Shown piece after piece: positions 44,937 to 58,673 of a stretch of 64,000 bases of DNA; the first letter of the stretch is position 1, and each line of letters opens with the position of its first letter. The translations under genes were made by a program, and so were the position numbers. The notes beneath the pieces are model-generated. The model saw only the letters and a list, made by a program, of their open reading frames with translations, was not told the origin of the DNA and made no database searches. The stretch is taken from the NCBI GenBank assembly GCA_965217775.1, contig CBDCJH010000002.1, positions 1,856,001 to 1,920,000 on the forward strand, read 5' to 3'. This DNA is from Acidobacteriota bacterium (lineage in GTDB: Bacteria > Acidobacteriota > UBA6911 > RPQK01 > JAJDTT01).

Positions 44937-47123
44937 ATGGCTAATGATAAATATATCGTCAAATCCTTAGGTACGATTGGAAGTGCGTTTTTCGGATCTT
45001 TTCGGACGCTTCGCGAAGTTCAGAGAAGGACGATTCCACCGATCCGTTCAGGGAAAGATGTCCTTGTAGCCTCGGCGACTGCGTCTGGCAAGACCGAAGC
45101 CATAGTGGCACCACTCATTTCAAGGACGCTGGATGGGACGGCAAGAGGCCTGCCCCGGATTCGCGTGCTTTTGACCGCACCAACCCGCGCCCTCGTCAAC
45201 GACTTGGCAGCAAGGATCGAGCCGCCGCTAACGCGGCTCGGATTGAGCTGCGGGCGCCAGACCAGCGATCACCGGGACAAAGGTAAGGAACCGTTCGTAC
45301 TTATCACTACTCCAGAATCGTTCGATTCGATGTTAGTGCGCGATGCGCGGTTGGAGGCTGGGAGGGTGACTGACCATCTACTTGCCGGCGTGTCGGCAGT
45401 ATTCATCGACGAGGCGCACCTCTTCGACGGAACTGCTCGTGGTGACCAAATGTCCTGGCTCCTAGGTCGTCTTCGTCGTCTGCGCCAACTAAATGCGGAC
45501 GGCGGCTCAAGCGACGCAAAGCGTTTACAGGTGTGCGCAGCCAGTGCCACCATCAGCGATCCGGGGGGTCTCGCGTATCGGCTCTTGGGAACCGATGCAG
45601 TCGCGGTCCAAGTTCCAGGCTTGAGGCAGATCGATGTATTCGGAAACTCGGCTGCACCTGACTGGTTTCCACTTGAATCGTCGATAACGATTGAGAACTT
45701 GCGCGATCGTCTGGGAATCGTGACATTCACAAATTTCCTCGAACAGGCGGAGAGACGAATCTGGCAGGCTTTGTCCAGCGGAGACGATGATCGCATGCGA
45801 AAAGCGCTTGTGTTCGTTCCAAGCCGCAAACTATCCGATGAACTCTCCACCCATCTCAATAGCACATTACCCTTGCACCGCGATCTGAAGGTGCTGCCGC
45901 ACCACGGTAGCTTGGCACAGGGTGTCCGGGAAAACTCTGAGCGGACGTTCTCCTCGACGCGCGACGCTGTGCTAGTAGCGACAACTACCTTGGAAGTAGG
46001 TGTCGACATTGGGGATGTGGACTTGGTCGTTCTTGTCGGTTCGCCACCCGGTACGCGCTCATTGTTGCAGCGGATTGGTCGGGCGGGCCGCAGAATCGGC
46101 CGCACTCGAGTCTTGGCTCTTCCTCGGACCGGGATCGAGCTCGCAGCCATCGCAAGCATGCTGATTTCCGCGCGGGACGGGATTCTGGAGCCCGAGGGAT
46201 ACGCTCGCAGGTGGTCCGTGTTCGTCCAACAAGCAGCCAGCTTCGTCGCTCAAGGTAGACCTCGCGGTCGGAGACGATCCGATTTGCTCGATTTAGCGCA
46301 GGATGTCTGGCCAGAGAAAGGGAGGGGAACGCCAGACGAGATCGTGGACCGACTACTCGACGCCGAGTATCTCGTCGAGGGTCGAGGCCGACTTGCGATA
46401 GGTGAGCATTGGGCAGATTTCTTCGACGTTGGTGGTCCGGGTATGCACGCAAATTTCGGATCGTCCAGTGGAGGCATTCCGGTGGTGGACGCCAACACTG
46501 GCGAGGTCGTCGCACACGTTGCTCAGAGGCCTTCCGAAGATAGAGAGATTGCTCTAGGAGGGCAACGATGGGACTTGCAAGCCATCGATGGCGAACTCCT
46601 ACTAAAACCCAAGGGAGCTGGACCTGTTCGCGATAGTTTTCAATACGCGGCGCGGCGTGGTCCGACTGATCTCGAATACGCTGTGCATGTAAGGCGTGGC
46701 TTAGGACTTGGAGAGGACGATGCACCGCTCATAAATTCGCCTCGTGGCTGGATCTGGCTTCATTTTGGTGGCAGCGCATATCAGACATTATTGTGCCATC
46801 TCTTGCCGGGCCTTAGTCCGACCGCTGGGTTGGCTGGAGTGGCGGTTAAGGGAATTCCTAGTGATGGTGAACTAAACCAACTAGCTACTGACCGTGACGA
46901 ATTGCGTGTTGCGGTAGAGGAACATTTTGAGGAACTTGAACGACTACTCGCGGTGGGTCCATATCAGCGTTACCTCACCAAGCATTGTCGTCAACGAGTT
47001 GTGACGGGGCTGTTTGACCTGCCGTCATTCCAAGACTGGCTGAAGACTCGCCGTGTGCGAGAAATAGCACCCGACGATCCGTGCTCGAAATACATATGTA
47101 CAGCACTCGTGGAAAGACGGTAG
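44937..47123 (+). CDS. Lhr-like DEAH-box helicase
   Basis: Q motif LREVQ, TASGKT, PTRAL, TPES, DEAH, SAT, HHGSL, TLEVGVDIG, QRIGRAGR. Confidence 0.9.
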   Translation: MANDKYIVKSLGTIGSAFFGSFRTLREVQRRTIPPIRSGKDVLVASATASGKTEAIVAPLISRTLDGTARGLPRIRVLLTAPTRALVNDLAARIEPPLTRLGLSCGRQTSDHRDKGKEPFVLITTPESFDSMLVRDARLEAGRVTDHLLAGVSAVFIDEAHLFDGTARGDQMSWLLGRLRRLRQLNADGGSSDAKRLQVCAASATISDPGGLAYRLLGTDAVAVQVPGLRQIDVFGNSAAPDWFPLESSITIENLRDRLGIVTFTNFLEQAERRIWQALSSGDDDRMRKALVFVPSRKLSDELSTHLNSTLPLHRDLKVLPHHGSLAQGVRENSERTFSSTRDAVLVATTTLEVGVDIGDVDLVVLVGSPPGTRSLLQRIGRAGRRIGRTRVLALPRTGIELAAIASMLISARDGILEPEGYARRWSVFVQQAASFVAQGRPRGRRRSDLLDLAQDVWPEKGRGTPDEIVDRLLDAEYLVEGRGRLAIGEHWADFFDVGGPGMHANFGSSSGGIPVVDANTGEVVAHVAQRPSEDREIALGGQRWDLQAIDGELLLKPKGAGPVRDSFQYAARRGPTDLEYAVHVRRGLGLGEDDAPLINSPRGWIWLHFGGSAYQTLLCHLLPGLSPTAGLAGVAVKGIPSDGELNQLATDRDELRVAVEEHFEELERLLAVGPYQRYLTKHCRQRVVTGLFDLPSFQDWLKTRRVREIAPDDPCSKYICTALVERR

Positions 47124-47426: not shown

Positions 47427-47684
47427 TCAGGCGCCGAGATCCTGGAACAGTTCCTCGGCGCTGTTGAATCGTTTGCCCCTGCCTTGGTCCAATTCCTCCA
47501 TTGCCTTGGCGGTAGCAGCATTCGGCACCCGGACAGCGAACGGCAGCCGCTTCTCATCTGCAACCCGCAGCAGCAACAAACGAATGGCGTCTGACACCGA
47601 CAAGCCCATTTCATGAAGAGCTTTTGCCGCTCGTGCTTTGGTGTCGCTATCGATCCGTGCGCGTACGACAGTATCGTGACTCAT
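47427..47684 (-). CDS. dinJ: DinJ/RelB antitoxin (no intact toxin partner seen)
   Basis: VVRARID..K.RA..AL..MGLSVSDAIRLLL.RVA.EKRLPF...VPNA.T..AM; palindrome TGTAGCTACA upstream (47713-47722). Confidence 0.85.
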   Translation of the reverse strand: MSHDTVVRARIDSDTKARAAKALHEMGLSVSDAIRLLLLRVADEKRLPFAVRVPNAATAKAMEELDQGRGKRFNSAEELFQDLGA

Positions 47685-47833
47685 CCACATGCCTCCGAGT
47701 TTATAGCTCTATTGTAGCTACATTAGTCCCTCATCGCTACGCTTGGAGGATCCCGGTCAATGGCAGATATGTTCCGTCTACAACTAAGAAAACACTTCGC
47801 TCACTTCAAGGTGGGGGAGCAGGAGCGGCGGCT

Positions 47834-48588
47834 GTGCGCCAGGCTAACTGGCACAAGATAGGCGGTGAAAGTCCGCTGAAACGAAGGATTAACCATCCAC
47901 GTTTCCCCGCGAGCCGTGCGTGGGCATTAGGAGGCTGTCCGAGAACTCGGTTTTCGTCCAAATCGACATCTTTAAGTTATTGATTTATAAGAGGATAGTT
48001 TTTTCGGAGTCGTGAGTTTTCGAGTTCTCGGACAGGCTCCTAGTAAGGGTGTCGGCGAAGCGTCGGTAGCGGTGCGTATGGGCAGGCTATTGAGCACCGA
48101 AAGCTCCATGATCGGAAGCGCCGAGACTGTAGTCGCGGTCGAAGGTAACACTGGCTGGACCGACAGGGTGAGGGACAGCCGGGCTCCGCGGTGTCATAGA
48201 ACCCATGCACGTACGTAAATCTCGTGTCGGGACCTGGGAGGGCTTGCTCTCTCCCCGGCGAGAGCCGGGGCCTTGTGGGAAAGGAGAAAGCCGTAACCCA
48301 TGAGGGGAGAGAGGAAGCAATCGGATTCATCCATGGTAGTGATGAAGCGGGCGAACAAGGAGGGGGAACTCTCTGCGGAGTCCGTGAAGCGAAGGGATAG
48401 AACCAAGGGGAATTCGGCTCACCAAAGTACGGACCGGACCCAGAGCCGGGTAGCCGTGACACAGGCGGGGGTCGGATACGGCTGGCGTCGCAGCCAGCCG
48501 TCATTACCTGAGGTAGGAGCCGTGTGCCTTAACGGGCACGCACGGATCTGCGCGGGGGGCGCTGGGCAACCGGCGTCCCTACCGCGAC
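47834..48588 (+). ncRNA. ORF-less group II intron (IIB-like) inserted in a REP hairpin
   Basis: 5' GTGCG; DI GGCGGTGAAAGTCCGC and TATTGAGC.CCGAAA; GACCTGGGAG; DV GAGCCGTGTGCCTTAACGGGCACGCACGGATC; DVI ending CCCTACCGCGAC; no RT ORF in DIV. Confidence 0.92.
47931..48039. mobile_element. ~110-bp MITE inside intron domain I
   Basis: 19-bp TIRs GAGGCTGTCCGAGAACTCG / CGAGTTCTCGGACAGGCTC; flanks TTAG / CTAG; AT-rich core. Confidence 0.8.
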
Positions 48589-48604
48589 TTCCAGCCGCCG
48601 AATA

Positions 48605-48714
48605 GGAGCGGCGGAATTCTTGCCGCCGAACTCCAGTGGTGCAATGGGATAAAGAGGGAGCGGGGGAATGGAAGAATGGGCGACTGGAAAGTCGCCCCTC
48701 CCGTCGCCCCTCCC
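48605..48714. repeat. GGAG-type REP cluster
   Basis: GGAGCGGCGGAATTCTTGCCGCCG and inverted GGGCGACTGGAAAGTCGCCCCTCC. Confidence 0.8.
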
Positions 48715-48715
48715 G

Positions 48716-50599
48716 TCACTTTTGCCGCAAGCACCAGCGGACGGCGTTCTTCATCAGGCGCTGGTACATGGGATGAAACAGCGGTTCGGCCGGGTGGCCG
48801 CTGGCCAGATGGCAGACTCTTCCCTTCCCGACCTCGCGGACCCAGCCGGCGGGGACTGCGATTCCGTTGTCCATACGACTCTCCAGAATCATGTGGACCT
48901 GACTCTCGTCGTAGAGGACAGGCGTGTGCTGCTCGTCCGCCGTGGTGAAATCGCCGACCCCCTCGGTGATGGGATGGTCCGGGTCCACGACCTCGACGCG
49001 GAAACGCTCGTAGGGTCCGTGGCCGATGTACCGGCCTCCCACCAGCTTCAGGTAGGGTCCGGCGGGAGGATAGAGACCCAGGGAGTTGTGGAGATTCAGG
49101 AAGGAGCCTCCCTTCTCGACGAAATCCGCCACGGCCCGCTCCTGATCCAGGGTCATCCAGGTCTTGATCTCCCCATGAAGGGGATCCACCAGAGTTCTCA
49201 AGAGTTCCCGGCCCTCGCCCACGCGTTCCACTTGACGGCCGTCCCGCAGAATGACCAGCAACTGGACCCGGGACAGGTTCTTCGCGGACAGGGCGTTCAC
49301 GTCCACGGTGAAGTGGGGAGTGACGCCGGAGGCCTGGAACACCAGACTCAGCGCTTTCCGGATCGGAGCGGGTGGATGGGGACTGTCCCCGATCAGGACC
49401 AGCGCATGGGCACTGGAGTCGCCGGGTTGGGGCGGACGGCCGTGGAAGGGAGCGTTGGGGACCGTGAGCTCCCGATAGACATGGGCAACCTGTGGGTCTC
49501 TGGGGCGCGTATGGGTGGTCCAGTACTGCAGTCCGTCGGGAATCCGGACATATTTCTGGACCTCGGGCAGGGAGAATCCGATGGCGATCCCATAGGCGAC
49601 CTCGTCGCGGAGCTCCACCAGGAGGTCCCGCAGCCGTTCCACCATGCCCGAACCGGTCCAGGAACCGAATCCGGGAACTACCTCCCGGGCGCCAAGTTCC
49701 TGGAGGCGCTCCAGAACCTCGATCCAGGCTGCGGTGTCCTTGCCCGCAGGATTGAATCGGATCCCGTTCATGACCAAAGGACCACCGAAAAGGACTTTCT
49801 CTTTCTGGAGATAGAGGGCCCCGGCTCCCTCGTCCCAGACCTCGTCCAGGGGCAAAAACTGGATGGACCGGGCCGAATCTCCCACGAATCCAGGACTCGA
49901 CAGGGCCGTCACCATCGACGGGTCCAGATCCGGCATCCCGGCCAAGAGACGCTCGCGGATCCTGGAGGAAGTGAGGATTTGGGTCACGCCCCCCTTGACC
50001 AGCGCGCCGACCAGAGGAGCGATGGGATCCAACCCCATCGGTTCGGCGGAGCGATACCAGCGCTTCTCCACTGGCTCGTAGGCCGAGGAGGTCCCCCAGG
50101 ATGGATCTTCCCAGATGTGGGTCAAGACCAGACGCCGGGCGGGCCGGATACCCTTGCCCGTGACCCGGTCCAGATAGGCCTCGACCGATCGGCCTCGGGG
50201 CAGGTCGATCAACAATGTCTCCCCATCCAACTCCACCCACCCGCAGTTGGCACTGGCAAATTGGTGGGAGAAGCCGGCGGCGTGAACTCCGGGACCCAGT
50301 TCCGCGTGGTGAGGGAGAAGTTGCGGTTGCGACTCGGCAGTCATCAGTCCTGTGGAGAGTACCAGAATCAACAACAAGCCAAACGGTCCGAGCCTCTTAC
50401 CAGGAGGGGCGATTTCCAGTCGCCTCTTTCTCCGTTCCGCCCTGCGCTCGTTCTCGTCTGTTTCGGCCGGAGTTCGGCGGTTGGAAACCGCCGCTCCCAG
50501 CGACTGACCATCGGGTCCGAGCCTTGAAGAATGCGGGATGGCTCCCAATACACTCGATCCCCCGAAACAAGCTGTCGAATTGGCCCCGTGAAATGACAT
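48716..50599 (-). CDS. MBL-fold + ThuA-like domain protein
   Basis: ANCGWV..ETLLID, LTH, VVPGFG (degenerate MBL); FVEKGGSFLNLH, HPITEG, DEQ, GKGRV..GH (ThuA); AGGAGG RBS at 50599; start uncertain. Confidence 0.75.
   Translation of the reverse strand: MSFHGANSTACFGGSSVLGAIPHSSRLGPDGQSLGAAVSNRRTPAETDENERRAERRKRRLEIAPPGKRLGPFGLLLILVLSTGLMTAESQPQLLPHHAELGPGVHAAGFSHQFASANCGWVELDGETLLIDLPRGRSVEAYLDRVTGKGIRPARRLVLTHIWEDPSWGTSSAYEPVEKRWYRSAEPMGLDPIAPLVGALVKGGVTQILTSSRIRERLLAGMPDLDPSMVTALSSPGFVGDSARSIQFLPLDEVWDEGAGALYLQKEKVLFGGPLVMNGIRFNPAGKDTAAWIEVLERLQELGAREVVPGFGSWTGSGMVERLRDLLVELRDEVAYGIAIGFSLPEVQKYVRIPDGLQYWTTHTRPRDPQVAHVYRELTVPNAPFHGRPPQPGDSSAHALVLIGDSPHPPAPIRKALSLVFQASGVTPHFTVDVNALSAKNLSRVQLLVILRDGRQVERVGEGRELLRTLVDPLHGEIKTWMTLDQERAVADFVEKGGSFLNLHNSLGLYPPAGPYLKLVGGRYIGHGPYERFRVEVVDPDHPITEGVGDFTTADEQHTPVLYDESQVHMILESRMDNGIAVPAGWVREVGKGRVCHLASGHPAEPLFHPMYQRLMKNAVRWCLRQK
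50403..50497. repeat. GGAG-type REP doublet
   Basis: GGAGGGGCGATTTCCAGTCGCC and inverted CGGCGGTTGGAAACCGCCGCTCC. Confidence 0.8.
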
Positions 50600-58536: not shown

Positions 58537-58556
58537 TTTCCACCGGCCCCCAATTG

Positions 58557-58673
58557 GGAGCGGCGGCTTTCTTGCCGCCGATTCGGGGGGTCTAGGGGGG
58601 ACGGAGTCCCCACTCCGCGTAGCGTCTTCCAACCGGGCGAAATGAAGAATGGGGGACAAGAATGCCCCCTCCC
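58557..58673. repeat. GGAG-type REP cluster
   Basis: GGAGCGGCGGCTTTCTTGCCGCCG and inverted GGGGGACAAGAATGCCCCCTCCC. Confidence 0.8.

Follow-up and report, generated by a model that had tools for sequence, protein, structure and literature searches.

How does a 755-nt element come to lie exactly between the two halves of a palindromic repeat in the genome of an Acidobacteriota bacterium? The stretch analysed here, called the window, comprises 64,000 nt (G000:C2:1856001-1920000, G000 being this genome and the other G numbers related ones). A sequence-only reading had described the element as a group II intron without an open reading frame (ORF), and had proposed that it homes into repetitive extragenic palindromes (REPs). 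Our analysis arrives at the same answer, with a probability of roughly 0.85: judging from comparisons of family members and their flanks, the element is a non-autonomous IIB-type group II intron, belonging to a family whose homing site is the REP palindrome. Two corrections to the earlier view are called for, in that the window copy is interrupted by a miniature inverted-repeat transposable element (MITE) and probably inactive, and that targeting proceeds by sequence.

The assignment to group II introns, made at first from the letters alone, is upheld by two Rfam models. RF02005 (group-II-D1D4-6) aligns over model positions 1-225 of 225 to 47973-48203 with 85.4 bits (gathering score 49), the first ~60 model positions falling on the MITE with low posterior probability. 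RF00029 (domains V and VI) matches 48515-48588 with 36.9 bits, just below its gathering score of 40 (E 2.3e-5), and the match ends exactly at 48588. The intron opens with GTGCGCC at 47834 and closes with CCGCGAC at 48588 (CCCTACCGCGAC); domain I-IV architecture, domains V and VI, the terminal motifs and pairing between exon-binding sites (EBS) and intron-binding sites (IBS) were all found in the window copy. The consensus fold of domains V and VI, obtained from nine distinct tails, contains compensatory changes between the ORF-less and full-length lineages of the family (UA to GC, GC to AU, CG to GC), which argues that the RNA is kept under structural selection. An intron-encoded reverse transcriptase (RT)/maturase is absent from the window copy, where what is left is about 56 codons from the N-terminal end and about 35 from the C-terminal end. 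The sequence-only reading was thus right that domain IV keeps only IEP (intron-encoded protein) ends: residues ~5-56 and 485-515 are matched within a frame of 101 codons, and in the ORF-less orthologue of the window copy these segments match at 73% and 61%. The remnant frame probably retains the DIVa RT-binding region. As a gene in its own right it was considered and rejected, being unconserved as such, since two further ORF-less copies (OL_C and OL_D) lack the start codon and are shifted in frame. Group II introns of this ORF-less kind form a recognised category.

Removal of the intron does rebuild a REP, as had been claimed. The 5' exon terminus GGAGC-G-GCGGCT (47822-47833) rejoins the 3' flank to give CGGCGGCT-TTCC-AGCCGCCG, with an 8-bp stem and a 4-nt loop, and the intron interrupts this palindrome at the stem/loop boundary. 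The predicted minus-strand REP with a GCGACT arm near 48690 is present at 48678-48698, and the predicted empty target at 58557 is where GGAGCGGCGGCTT starts; the REP to which the latter belongs is one among 131 family members found by pattern. These 131 matches to a tight pattern constitute REP1 in this genome (consensus GGGAGCGGCGRC-TTTCTT-GYCGCCGA, arrays often ~28 nt apart), and a second, unrelated family, REP2, has about 31 copies with a GTAG head. REP repeats give dozens of matches per genome in 8 of 8 genomes of the genus. In the window four REPs were read, all of them intergenic and at gene 3' ends; an open-frame test of REP location across the genome (median covering frame of 352 codons, against 525 at random sites) is powerless at 62% G+C.

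Is the occupied REP an accident of this locus? Family members were collected by BLAST of the intron against this genome and extraction of their flanks. The 16 members comprise ten full-length copies (1917 nt), four ORF-less copies (the window copy of 755 nt, OL_B of 642 nt, OL_C and OL_D of 643 nt each) and two fragments, one from the 3' end (92 nt) and one from the 5' end (67 nt). REP halves abut 15 of the 16: 13 of the 14 complete copies occupy REPs or REP-like palindromes, of the form GGGAG(N)GGCGRCT^TTCTTGYCGCC (the caret marks the insertion point), and both fragments stand beside a REP half. Together with the covariation between EBS and IBS described below, this bears out the claim that REP targeting goes beyond chance. 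The sequence-only reading had named copies at non-REP sites as the observation that would speak against it, and a few of these were found. The sole such copy among the 16, FL4 (locus L007, G000:C2:3929720-3931636), lies inside a conserved coding region and pairs with IBS1 at 6/6 and with IBS2 at 4/5 positions, with a mismatch at IBS3; its insertion must be very recent, because it is 100% identical to two REP-resident copies. Two full-length copies in G004 (a third there went unread) occupy near-identical non-REP sites at the start of a repeated gene and match their own EBS1, EBS2 and EBS3. Since such copies match their own EBS, they represent ordinary ectopic or retargeted insertions, and the REP reading stands.

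The recognition code can be read from the alleles. In the window copy EBS2 pairs with IBS2 at 5/5, EBS1 with IBS1 at 6/6 and EBS3 with IBS3 at 1/1 positions. EBS1 and EBS2 had been placed correctly from the start, as compensatory changes across alleles attest, and the concern that folding might put these segments outside the EBS loops is answered by the RF02005 alignment, which puts EBS1 in a terminal loop and EBS2 in an unpaired stretch. Among 40 copies with both flanks, surveyed in five genomes, EBS1 and IBS1 are paired at 6/6 positions in 36 and EBS3 and IBS3 in 39, and 29 rebuild a perfect Watson-Crick stem of at least 6 bp. Six alleles of EBS1, three of EBS2 and three of EBS3 occur, and every one fits the target at which it is found. 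Copies resident in REP1 all have EBS1 AGUCGC and EBS2 GCUCC, and the remaining EBS1 alleles GGGUGC, AGUCCC, AACCCC, AAUCGC and GGAUGC stand behind IBS1 GCACCC, GGGACU, GGGGUU, GCGAUU and GCAUCU, respectively; in retargeted copies IBS2 GUAGG goes with EBS2 CCUAC and GCAUG with CAUGC. EBS3 is newly located here: position 48196 is the sole alignment column that reads A, G or U where the +1 exon base is T, C or A. A delta-delta' pairing of the IIA type was rejected, as the base 5' of EBS1 remains U whichever base is at +1, which leaves EBS3. The intron is of the IIB type, and neither IIA nor IIC, because 48196 covaries with +1 and the base 5' of EBS1 does not; from IIC introns it is also set apart by the presence of EBS2, an IBS1 of 6 nt and insertion inside the hairpin.

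Judged by its pairing, one ORF-less sub-lineage is retargeted to the second REP family. OL_B, with EBS1 GGGUGC and EBS2 CCUAC, pairs perfectly with its host palindrome GTAGG-G-GCACCC^CTTGT-GGGTGCCC, a member of REP2, and the passage from REP1 to REP2 involved about seven EBS changes spread over all three EBS. The REP2-targeting copies OL_B (G000:C2:3223516-3224157) and L065 (in G007) start with GAGCG and not GUGCG; this U2A intron appears to have been inserted at least twice, because the two copies have different 3' flanks.

Could it be the hairpin, and not its sequence, that the intron seeks? By analogy with IIC introns, the ribonucleoprotein (RNP) would read the REP stem-loop extruded on a single-stranded lagging template, and pairing would only fine-tune the choice. 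In every REP type, REP2 and G-rich variants included, the intron goes in 0-2 nt from where the 5' arm ends, which makes a structural contribution possible, and the coordinated EBS changes between REP1 and REP2 would be easier after a structure-guided ectopic event. A census of this genome for GGAG..GCGRCT gave 168 empty sites, 109 of them hairpins (base composition predicts ~63 for all 181 sites), and among strict sequence matches the ratio of REP to non-REP is 11:1 for occupied against 109:59 for empty sites, a weak difference (Fisher p = 0.048) in the direction of hairpin guidance. However, of the empty sites that also have T at +1, 103 of 112 are already REP hairpins, so that sequence complementarity alone would place the intron in REPs about nine times out of ten and explains the association. 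The hairpin must also open for pairing, as IBS1 is the 5' arm itself; the family possesses a full EBS2 and a 6-nt EBS1, unlike IIC introns; and sites devoid of a hairpin are used when the EBS match, as by FL4 and the two G004 copies. Guidance by the hairpin is in our estimate quite unlikely. We conclude that the target is recognised by sequence and that a requirement for the hairpin is unsupported.

Did the intron move as RNA, or was it carried along by the DNA around it? Segmental duplication, recombination between REPs or a Y1 transposase transporting REP units together with the intron might spread copies without retrohoming. OL_C and OL_D, which are 99.5% identical and lie in tandem 1206 bp apart (G000:C2:4405417-4407265) with ~48/50 nt of 3' flank in common, look like the product of a local duplication and not of two homing events. 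There are also three Y1_Tnp-like genes in this genome (PF01797 matches at C2 positions 5635604, 4665981 and 2626245) that might be REP-associated tyrosine transposases for the REP families. However, neither REP1 nor REP2 occurs within 1.5 kb of these matches, only other G/C-rich palindromes, which in one case flank the gene and are of the GGGGAC/GTCCCC type. The other intron copies differ in their flanks up to the intron ends, and even in REP stems and loops (occupied variants have arms GGCGAC, GGCGGC or GGGGAC and loops TTTCTT, TTCC or TCC), so only the intron moved. Empty orthologous sites consist of exactly rejoined exons, with no target duplication at either of the two loci read, and confirm the family boundaries: 5 of 5 relatives searched lack an insertion at the FL4 site (...caggagatgcggct^gaccgaatc...), and the REP bearing the full-length copy FL6 has an intact and empty orthologue in G006 (...gggagcggcggct^ttcttgccgccga...). 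Neither covariation of EBS with IBS nor a replication strand bias would be expected from spread at the DNA level, which we regard as very improbable.

The strand bias is pronounced. In this genome cumulative GC skew is lowest at 5.01 Mb, where dnaA lies (5,010,750), and highest at 1.69 Mb; strands were assigned by taking dnaA as origin and the point facing it across the chromosome as terminus. The sense strand of the intron is the lagging-strand template for 15/16 copies in G000 (binomial p = 2.6e-4), 10/10 in G002, 4/4 in G004, 13/14 in G005 and 8/8 in G006. Empty REP targets in G000 divide 54:49 between the strands, against 12/1 for occupied ones (Fisher p = 0.005), and the bias is thus a property of the intron and not of the REP. 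Lagging-template bias is a signature of endonuclease-less introns reverse-splicing at replication forks, and the bias seen here fits replication-fork retrohoming. Lagging-strand bias according to IEP class is treated in the excerpted part of PMC8919778.

The RT required for such a pathway is encoded by the full-length copies, 9 of 10 of which keep the same long open frame (three copies are mutually identical). Its product of 519 residues matches TIGR04416 (group II RT/maturase) over residues 83-455 with 355 bits, the cut-off being 300. In a Pfam search RVT_1 was the sole family, with no match to an HNH/endonuclease domain, and the protein is in this respect endonuclease-less. Searches with the IEP lead to metagenome-assembled genomes (MAGs) of Acidobacteriota, with ~54%-identical relatives in MAGs of Bryobacterales. 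In the excerpted part of PMC3552965 the acidobacterial intron So.us.I2 belongs to class F, which offers a lead only for the IEP class here. Within the genus domains V and VI are both read as part of the IEP frame, whose TGA stop codon lies one base short of the 3' splice site (e.g. L007:138-1694, minus strand); in more distant relatives the frame ends at or within domain V, and the ~24 additional residues probably form a read-through tail.

How, then, might the intron reach its target? Its RNA has three guides, EBS2 for the REP foot GGAG(N), EBS1 for the 5' arm and first loop base (GCGRCU) and EBS3 for the next loop base, T. Because these three sites pair with foot, arm and loop bases, insertion falls on the stem/loop boundary and splits the REP. 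Matches of 12-13 nt of the EBS type are found in this genome almost exclusively in REPs, which makes the REP a multi-copy, mostly intergenic landing pad. As in the RmInt1-type pathway, the endonuclease-less RNP would reverse-splice into the template of lagging-strand synthesis at the fork, and the nascent lagging strand would prime cDNA synthesis.

The ORF-less copies would depend on an RT supplied in trans. A sister intron encoding an RT and carrying the same EBS1 and EBS2, which the trans-acting scheme anticipates, exists in ten copies in this genome, nine of them with the long open frame. All four ORF-less copies have one deletion junction in common, ~1.27 kb of internal sequence being lost, and sister genomes have the 643-nt form as well (at least 10 copies in G005, 7 in G006, at least 2 in G007); it follows that the deletion took place a single time and that ORF-less copies multiplied afterwards. 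A single in-frame deletion of IEP codons ~57-484 would have given rise to this lineage, which kept the ORF start with the likely DIVa site. The stretch around the ORF start is near-identical to that of full-length copies, and we infer it to be the DIVa RT-binding site. The lineage would have been mobilised in trans ever since, its EBS changing after REP variants up to the jump to the second REP family. ORF-less mobility is recent, because copies that are 100% identical are found at separate loci, three of them in G005 and two pairs in G006. G005 holds a single cognate full-length copy, with EBS1 AACCCC, and its ORF-less copies have AGUCCC; in two sister genomes ORF-less derivatives outnumber autonomous copies.

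A broader scenario has intron and REP families co-evolving, with hairpin geometry on the lagging template helping to fix the point of insertion and enabling hops between REP1 and REP2, and with a non-cognate RT at work in at least one genome, G006. We find it doubtful; if it were true, the intron would be a parasite of a parasite, a retroelement living on a repeat that is itself driven by a Y1 transposase.

Two features of the window copy escaped the sequence-only reading: a 111-bp MITE in domain I and a place on the leading-strand template, unlike the other copies in G000. The MITE is missing from all 13 other complete copies (the two fragments do not span its site). Elsewhere in this genome it has four free-standing copies at 82-88% identity, with TA or YTAG on both sides (CCAG/CCAG in one copy), as is typical of a MITE. 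Its RNA folds as a long hairpin that prolongs the D1 stem (-61.8 kcal/mol, z = -6.1). Is the window copy nevertheless an active and mobile ribozyme, the MITE sitting in a tolerated peripheral loop and merely lengthening the stem it continues? Its 5' GUGCG, EBS1, EBS2, EBS3 and domains V and VI are intact, and the 67-nt 5' fragment elsewhere in this genome is 100% identical to it. However, the only other MITE-bearing copy lies at the orthologous locus of G007 (99.1% identical), and since no second one was found in G000, the window copy has not copied itself after the MITE arrived. The GNRA loop is disrupted, with four further substitutions in the stem, and the strand is the disfavoured one, at a point 38 kb beyond the half-length terminus and ~210 kb beyond the maximum of the skew. 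Continued activity is on balance unlikely, and we regard the window copy as likely to be old, vertically inherited and probably inactive.

Retroelements usually lose their 5' ends, and 5' fragments are unusual. The 67-nt fragment (G000:C2:3009691-3009757) lies behind a REP 5' half, and similar 5' fragments of 52-67 nt occur in G002, G006, G007 and G008. In G002 a full-length copy (G002:C1:1404000-1406597) seems interrupted, its 5' 61 nt lying ~2 kb from the remainder, which suggests another nested insertion.

Several observations weigh against a REP-homing intron mobilised by its sisters, in addition to the RF00029 score of the window copy. At the RNA level, identity between the full-length copies of this genome and the ORF-less lineage is only 83-87%. 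The single-contig assembly of G006 has no cognate IEP, the best matches being 32-36% identical, despite its seven ORF-less copies (loci there include L063, L074, L082, L090, L092 and L093), some of them recently copied. Every other copy retains a GNRA-capped hairpin loop in D1 where this one has the MITE, a loss that may cripple folding, and the window copy is the sole one in G000 on the leading-strand template. Pooled over five genomes, 50/52 copies lie on the lagging-strand template, a figure that overstates significance because kin copies in related genomes are not all independent; within G000, OL_C and OL_D also look like one tandem duplication. Finally, contigs from four sequencing runs (two of them RNA libraries) hold family members, including one ORF-less copy followed by a REP half, and none joins the REP halves across the intron (47833 to 48589), although contigs cannot show absence; they are likewise uninformative on transcription and strand, the MITE-bearing window copy is thinly covered in them, and they contain no empty site.

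Table 1. Features of the intron, its target and its neighbours, in window coordinates.
Feature	Position	Strand	Basis or remark
RelB antitoxin gene (PF04221, E 5e-23)	47427-47690	-	adjoins intron
IBS2 (GGAGC), conserved 5' foot of REP	47822..47826	+	5/5 pairs with EBS2; covaries with EBS2
IBS1 (GCGGCT), 5' arm of REP stem, end of 5' exon	47828..47833	+	6/6 pairs with EBS1, one G-U
Group II intron, ORF-less, IIB-type	47834..48588	+	755 nt including nested MITE; RF02005, RF00029, GUGCG/GAC ends
Nested MITE	47931..48041	.	111 bp; ~20-bp terminal inverted repeats (GGAGGCTGTCCGAGAAC...); TA / YTAG flanks; in domain I hairpin loop
EBS2 (GCUCC)	48103..48107	+	unpaired variable internal segment of domain I, RF02005 alignment; covaries with IBS2
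EBS1 (AGUCGC)	48131..48136	+	terminal loop of D1 hairpin, RF02005 alignment; covaries with IBS1
EBS3 (A)	48196..48196	+	pairs with first 3'-exon base T48589
Remnant IEP frame, 101 codons	48300..48605	+	N-terminal ~56 codons fused in frame to last ~35
Domain V	48517..48548	+	catalytic AGC 48518-48520; RF00029 alignment; compensatory pairs, ORF-less vs full-length lineages
Domain VI and 3' splice site	48550..48588	+	bulged UA, branch A48581; RF00029 alignment; consensus fold
3' half of split REP: loop TTCC (IBS3 = T48589) and 3' arm AGCCGCCG	48589..48600	+	sequence, hairpin reconstruction
Second REP of cluster, unoccupied (GGAGCGGCGG-AATTCTT-GCCGCCGA)	48605..48629	+	sequence
Third REP of cluster, inverted (GGGGCGACTTTCCAGTCGCCC on minus strand)	48678..48698	-	sequence; just past 3' end of ThuA-domain gene
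ThuA-domain gene (Pfam PF06283)	48716-50599	-	
Empty REP target (GGGAGCGGCGGCT^TTCTTGCCGCCGA)	58556..58582	+	20 nt past stop of 838-aa ORF

The three-REP cluster with the intron sits between the start of relB and the 3' end of the ThuA-domain gene, both on the opposite strand (Table 1). Upstream of relB (44937-47123) a DEAD/Helicase_C protein is encoded whose C terminus has a weak Cas3-like match, and the block of these two genes is missing at the orthologous locus in most sister genomes. On the ThuA side the flank is conserved in 8/8 genomes of the genus, but no clean empty allele of the window locus can be read; outside G007 the locus has a different upstream neighbour and a rearranged REP array. 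The empty REP of the window is followed at 58583-58615 by a second repeat, GGGGGG(TYW)GGGGGGACGGAGTCCCC, which directly follows many REPs genome-wide.

How does the family compare with known mobile introns? RmInt1 of Sinorhizobium meliloti (IIB3, class D, endonuclease-less) reportedly homes into a multi-copy insertion sequence (IS), ISRm2011-2. The present family resembles it in its endonuclease-less RT/maturase, EBS1/2/3 recognition, lagging-template bias and repeated genomic homing site, and differs in that the target is a REP palindrome of ~25 nt and not a transposase gene, and that ORF-less derivatives exceed autonomous copies in two sister genomes. In Thermosynechococcus elongatus a proliferating family is said to include trans-mobilised ORF-less members (Mohr et al. 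2010). Reliance of ORF-less derivatives on a sister RT and diversification of EBS toward new sites are common to both cases, but here diversification tracks a single kind of host repeat, in its variants and families. IIC introns target intrinsic terminators and attC sites, inserting after the hairpin without EBS2 and with an IBS1 of 3-4 nt. The family described here is like them in its association with DNA palindromes, lack of an endonuclease and lagging-template bias, and unlike them in inserting inside the hairpin, at the stem/loop junction, with 5 + 6 + 1 base pairs.

The lagging-strand bias of IIC introns appears in the excerpted part of PMC8919778, and IIB introns beside attC-like hairpins in that of PMC7923331. 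Among insertion sequences, ISPpu9, ISPpu10, ISPsy8, IS1397 and ISPa11 are listed as targeting REPs in the excerpted part of PMC1525189. REPs are the preferred landing site for mobile DNA in those cases as here, but these elements are DNA transposons that read REPs via proteins. A table row in the same paper gives 2/9 copies of a Pseudomonas putida KT2440 group II intron as REP-associated; that association of 22%, undiscussed in the excerpted text of the paper, contrasts with 15/16 and an explicit recognition code here. No description of a REP-homing group II intron was found in searches of open-access PMC papers and bioRxiv preprints. The family is IIB-type and endonuclease-less, has a probably trans-mobilised ORF-less lineage and uses the REP as its homing site, and its natural retargeting among REP variants and families is legible in the genomes.

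Bacterial group II introns are thought to persist by means of low-harm sites, such as other mobile elements, terminators and attC sites. In the present family the landing site is the most abundant intergenic repeat of the host itself, and the full code of its recognition is readable from natural covariation. Six EBS1 alleles and two REP families make up a natural retargeting series, accompanied by a clean genomic signature of fork-coupled retrohoming and by a thriving non-autonomous intron lineage. The family might thus serve as a testable system for how introns change specificity, and for whether DNA hairpins help or hinder reverse splicing. For the biology of REPs, it means that these repeats are targeted by retroelements as well as by insertion sequences.

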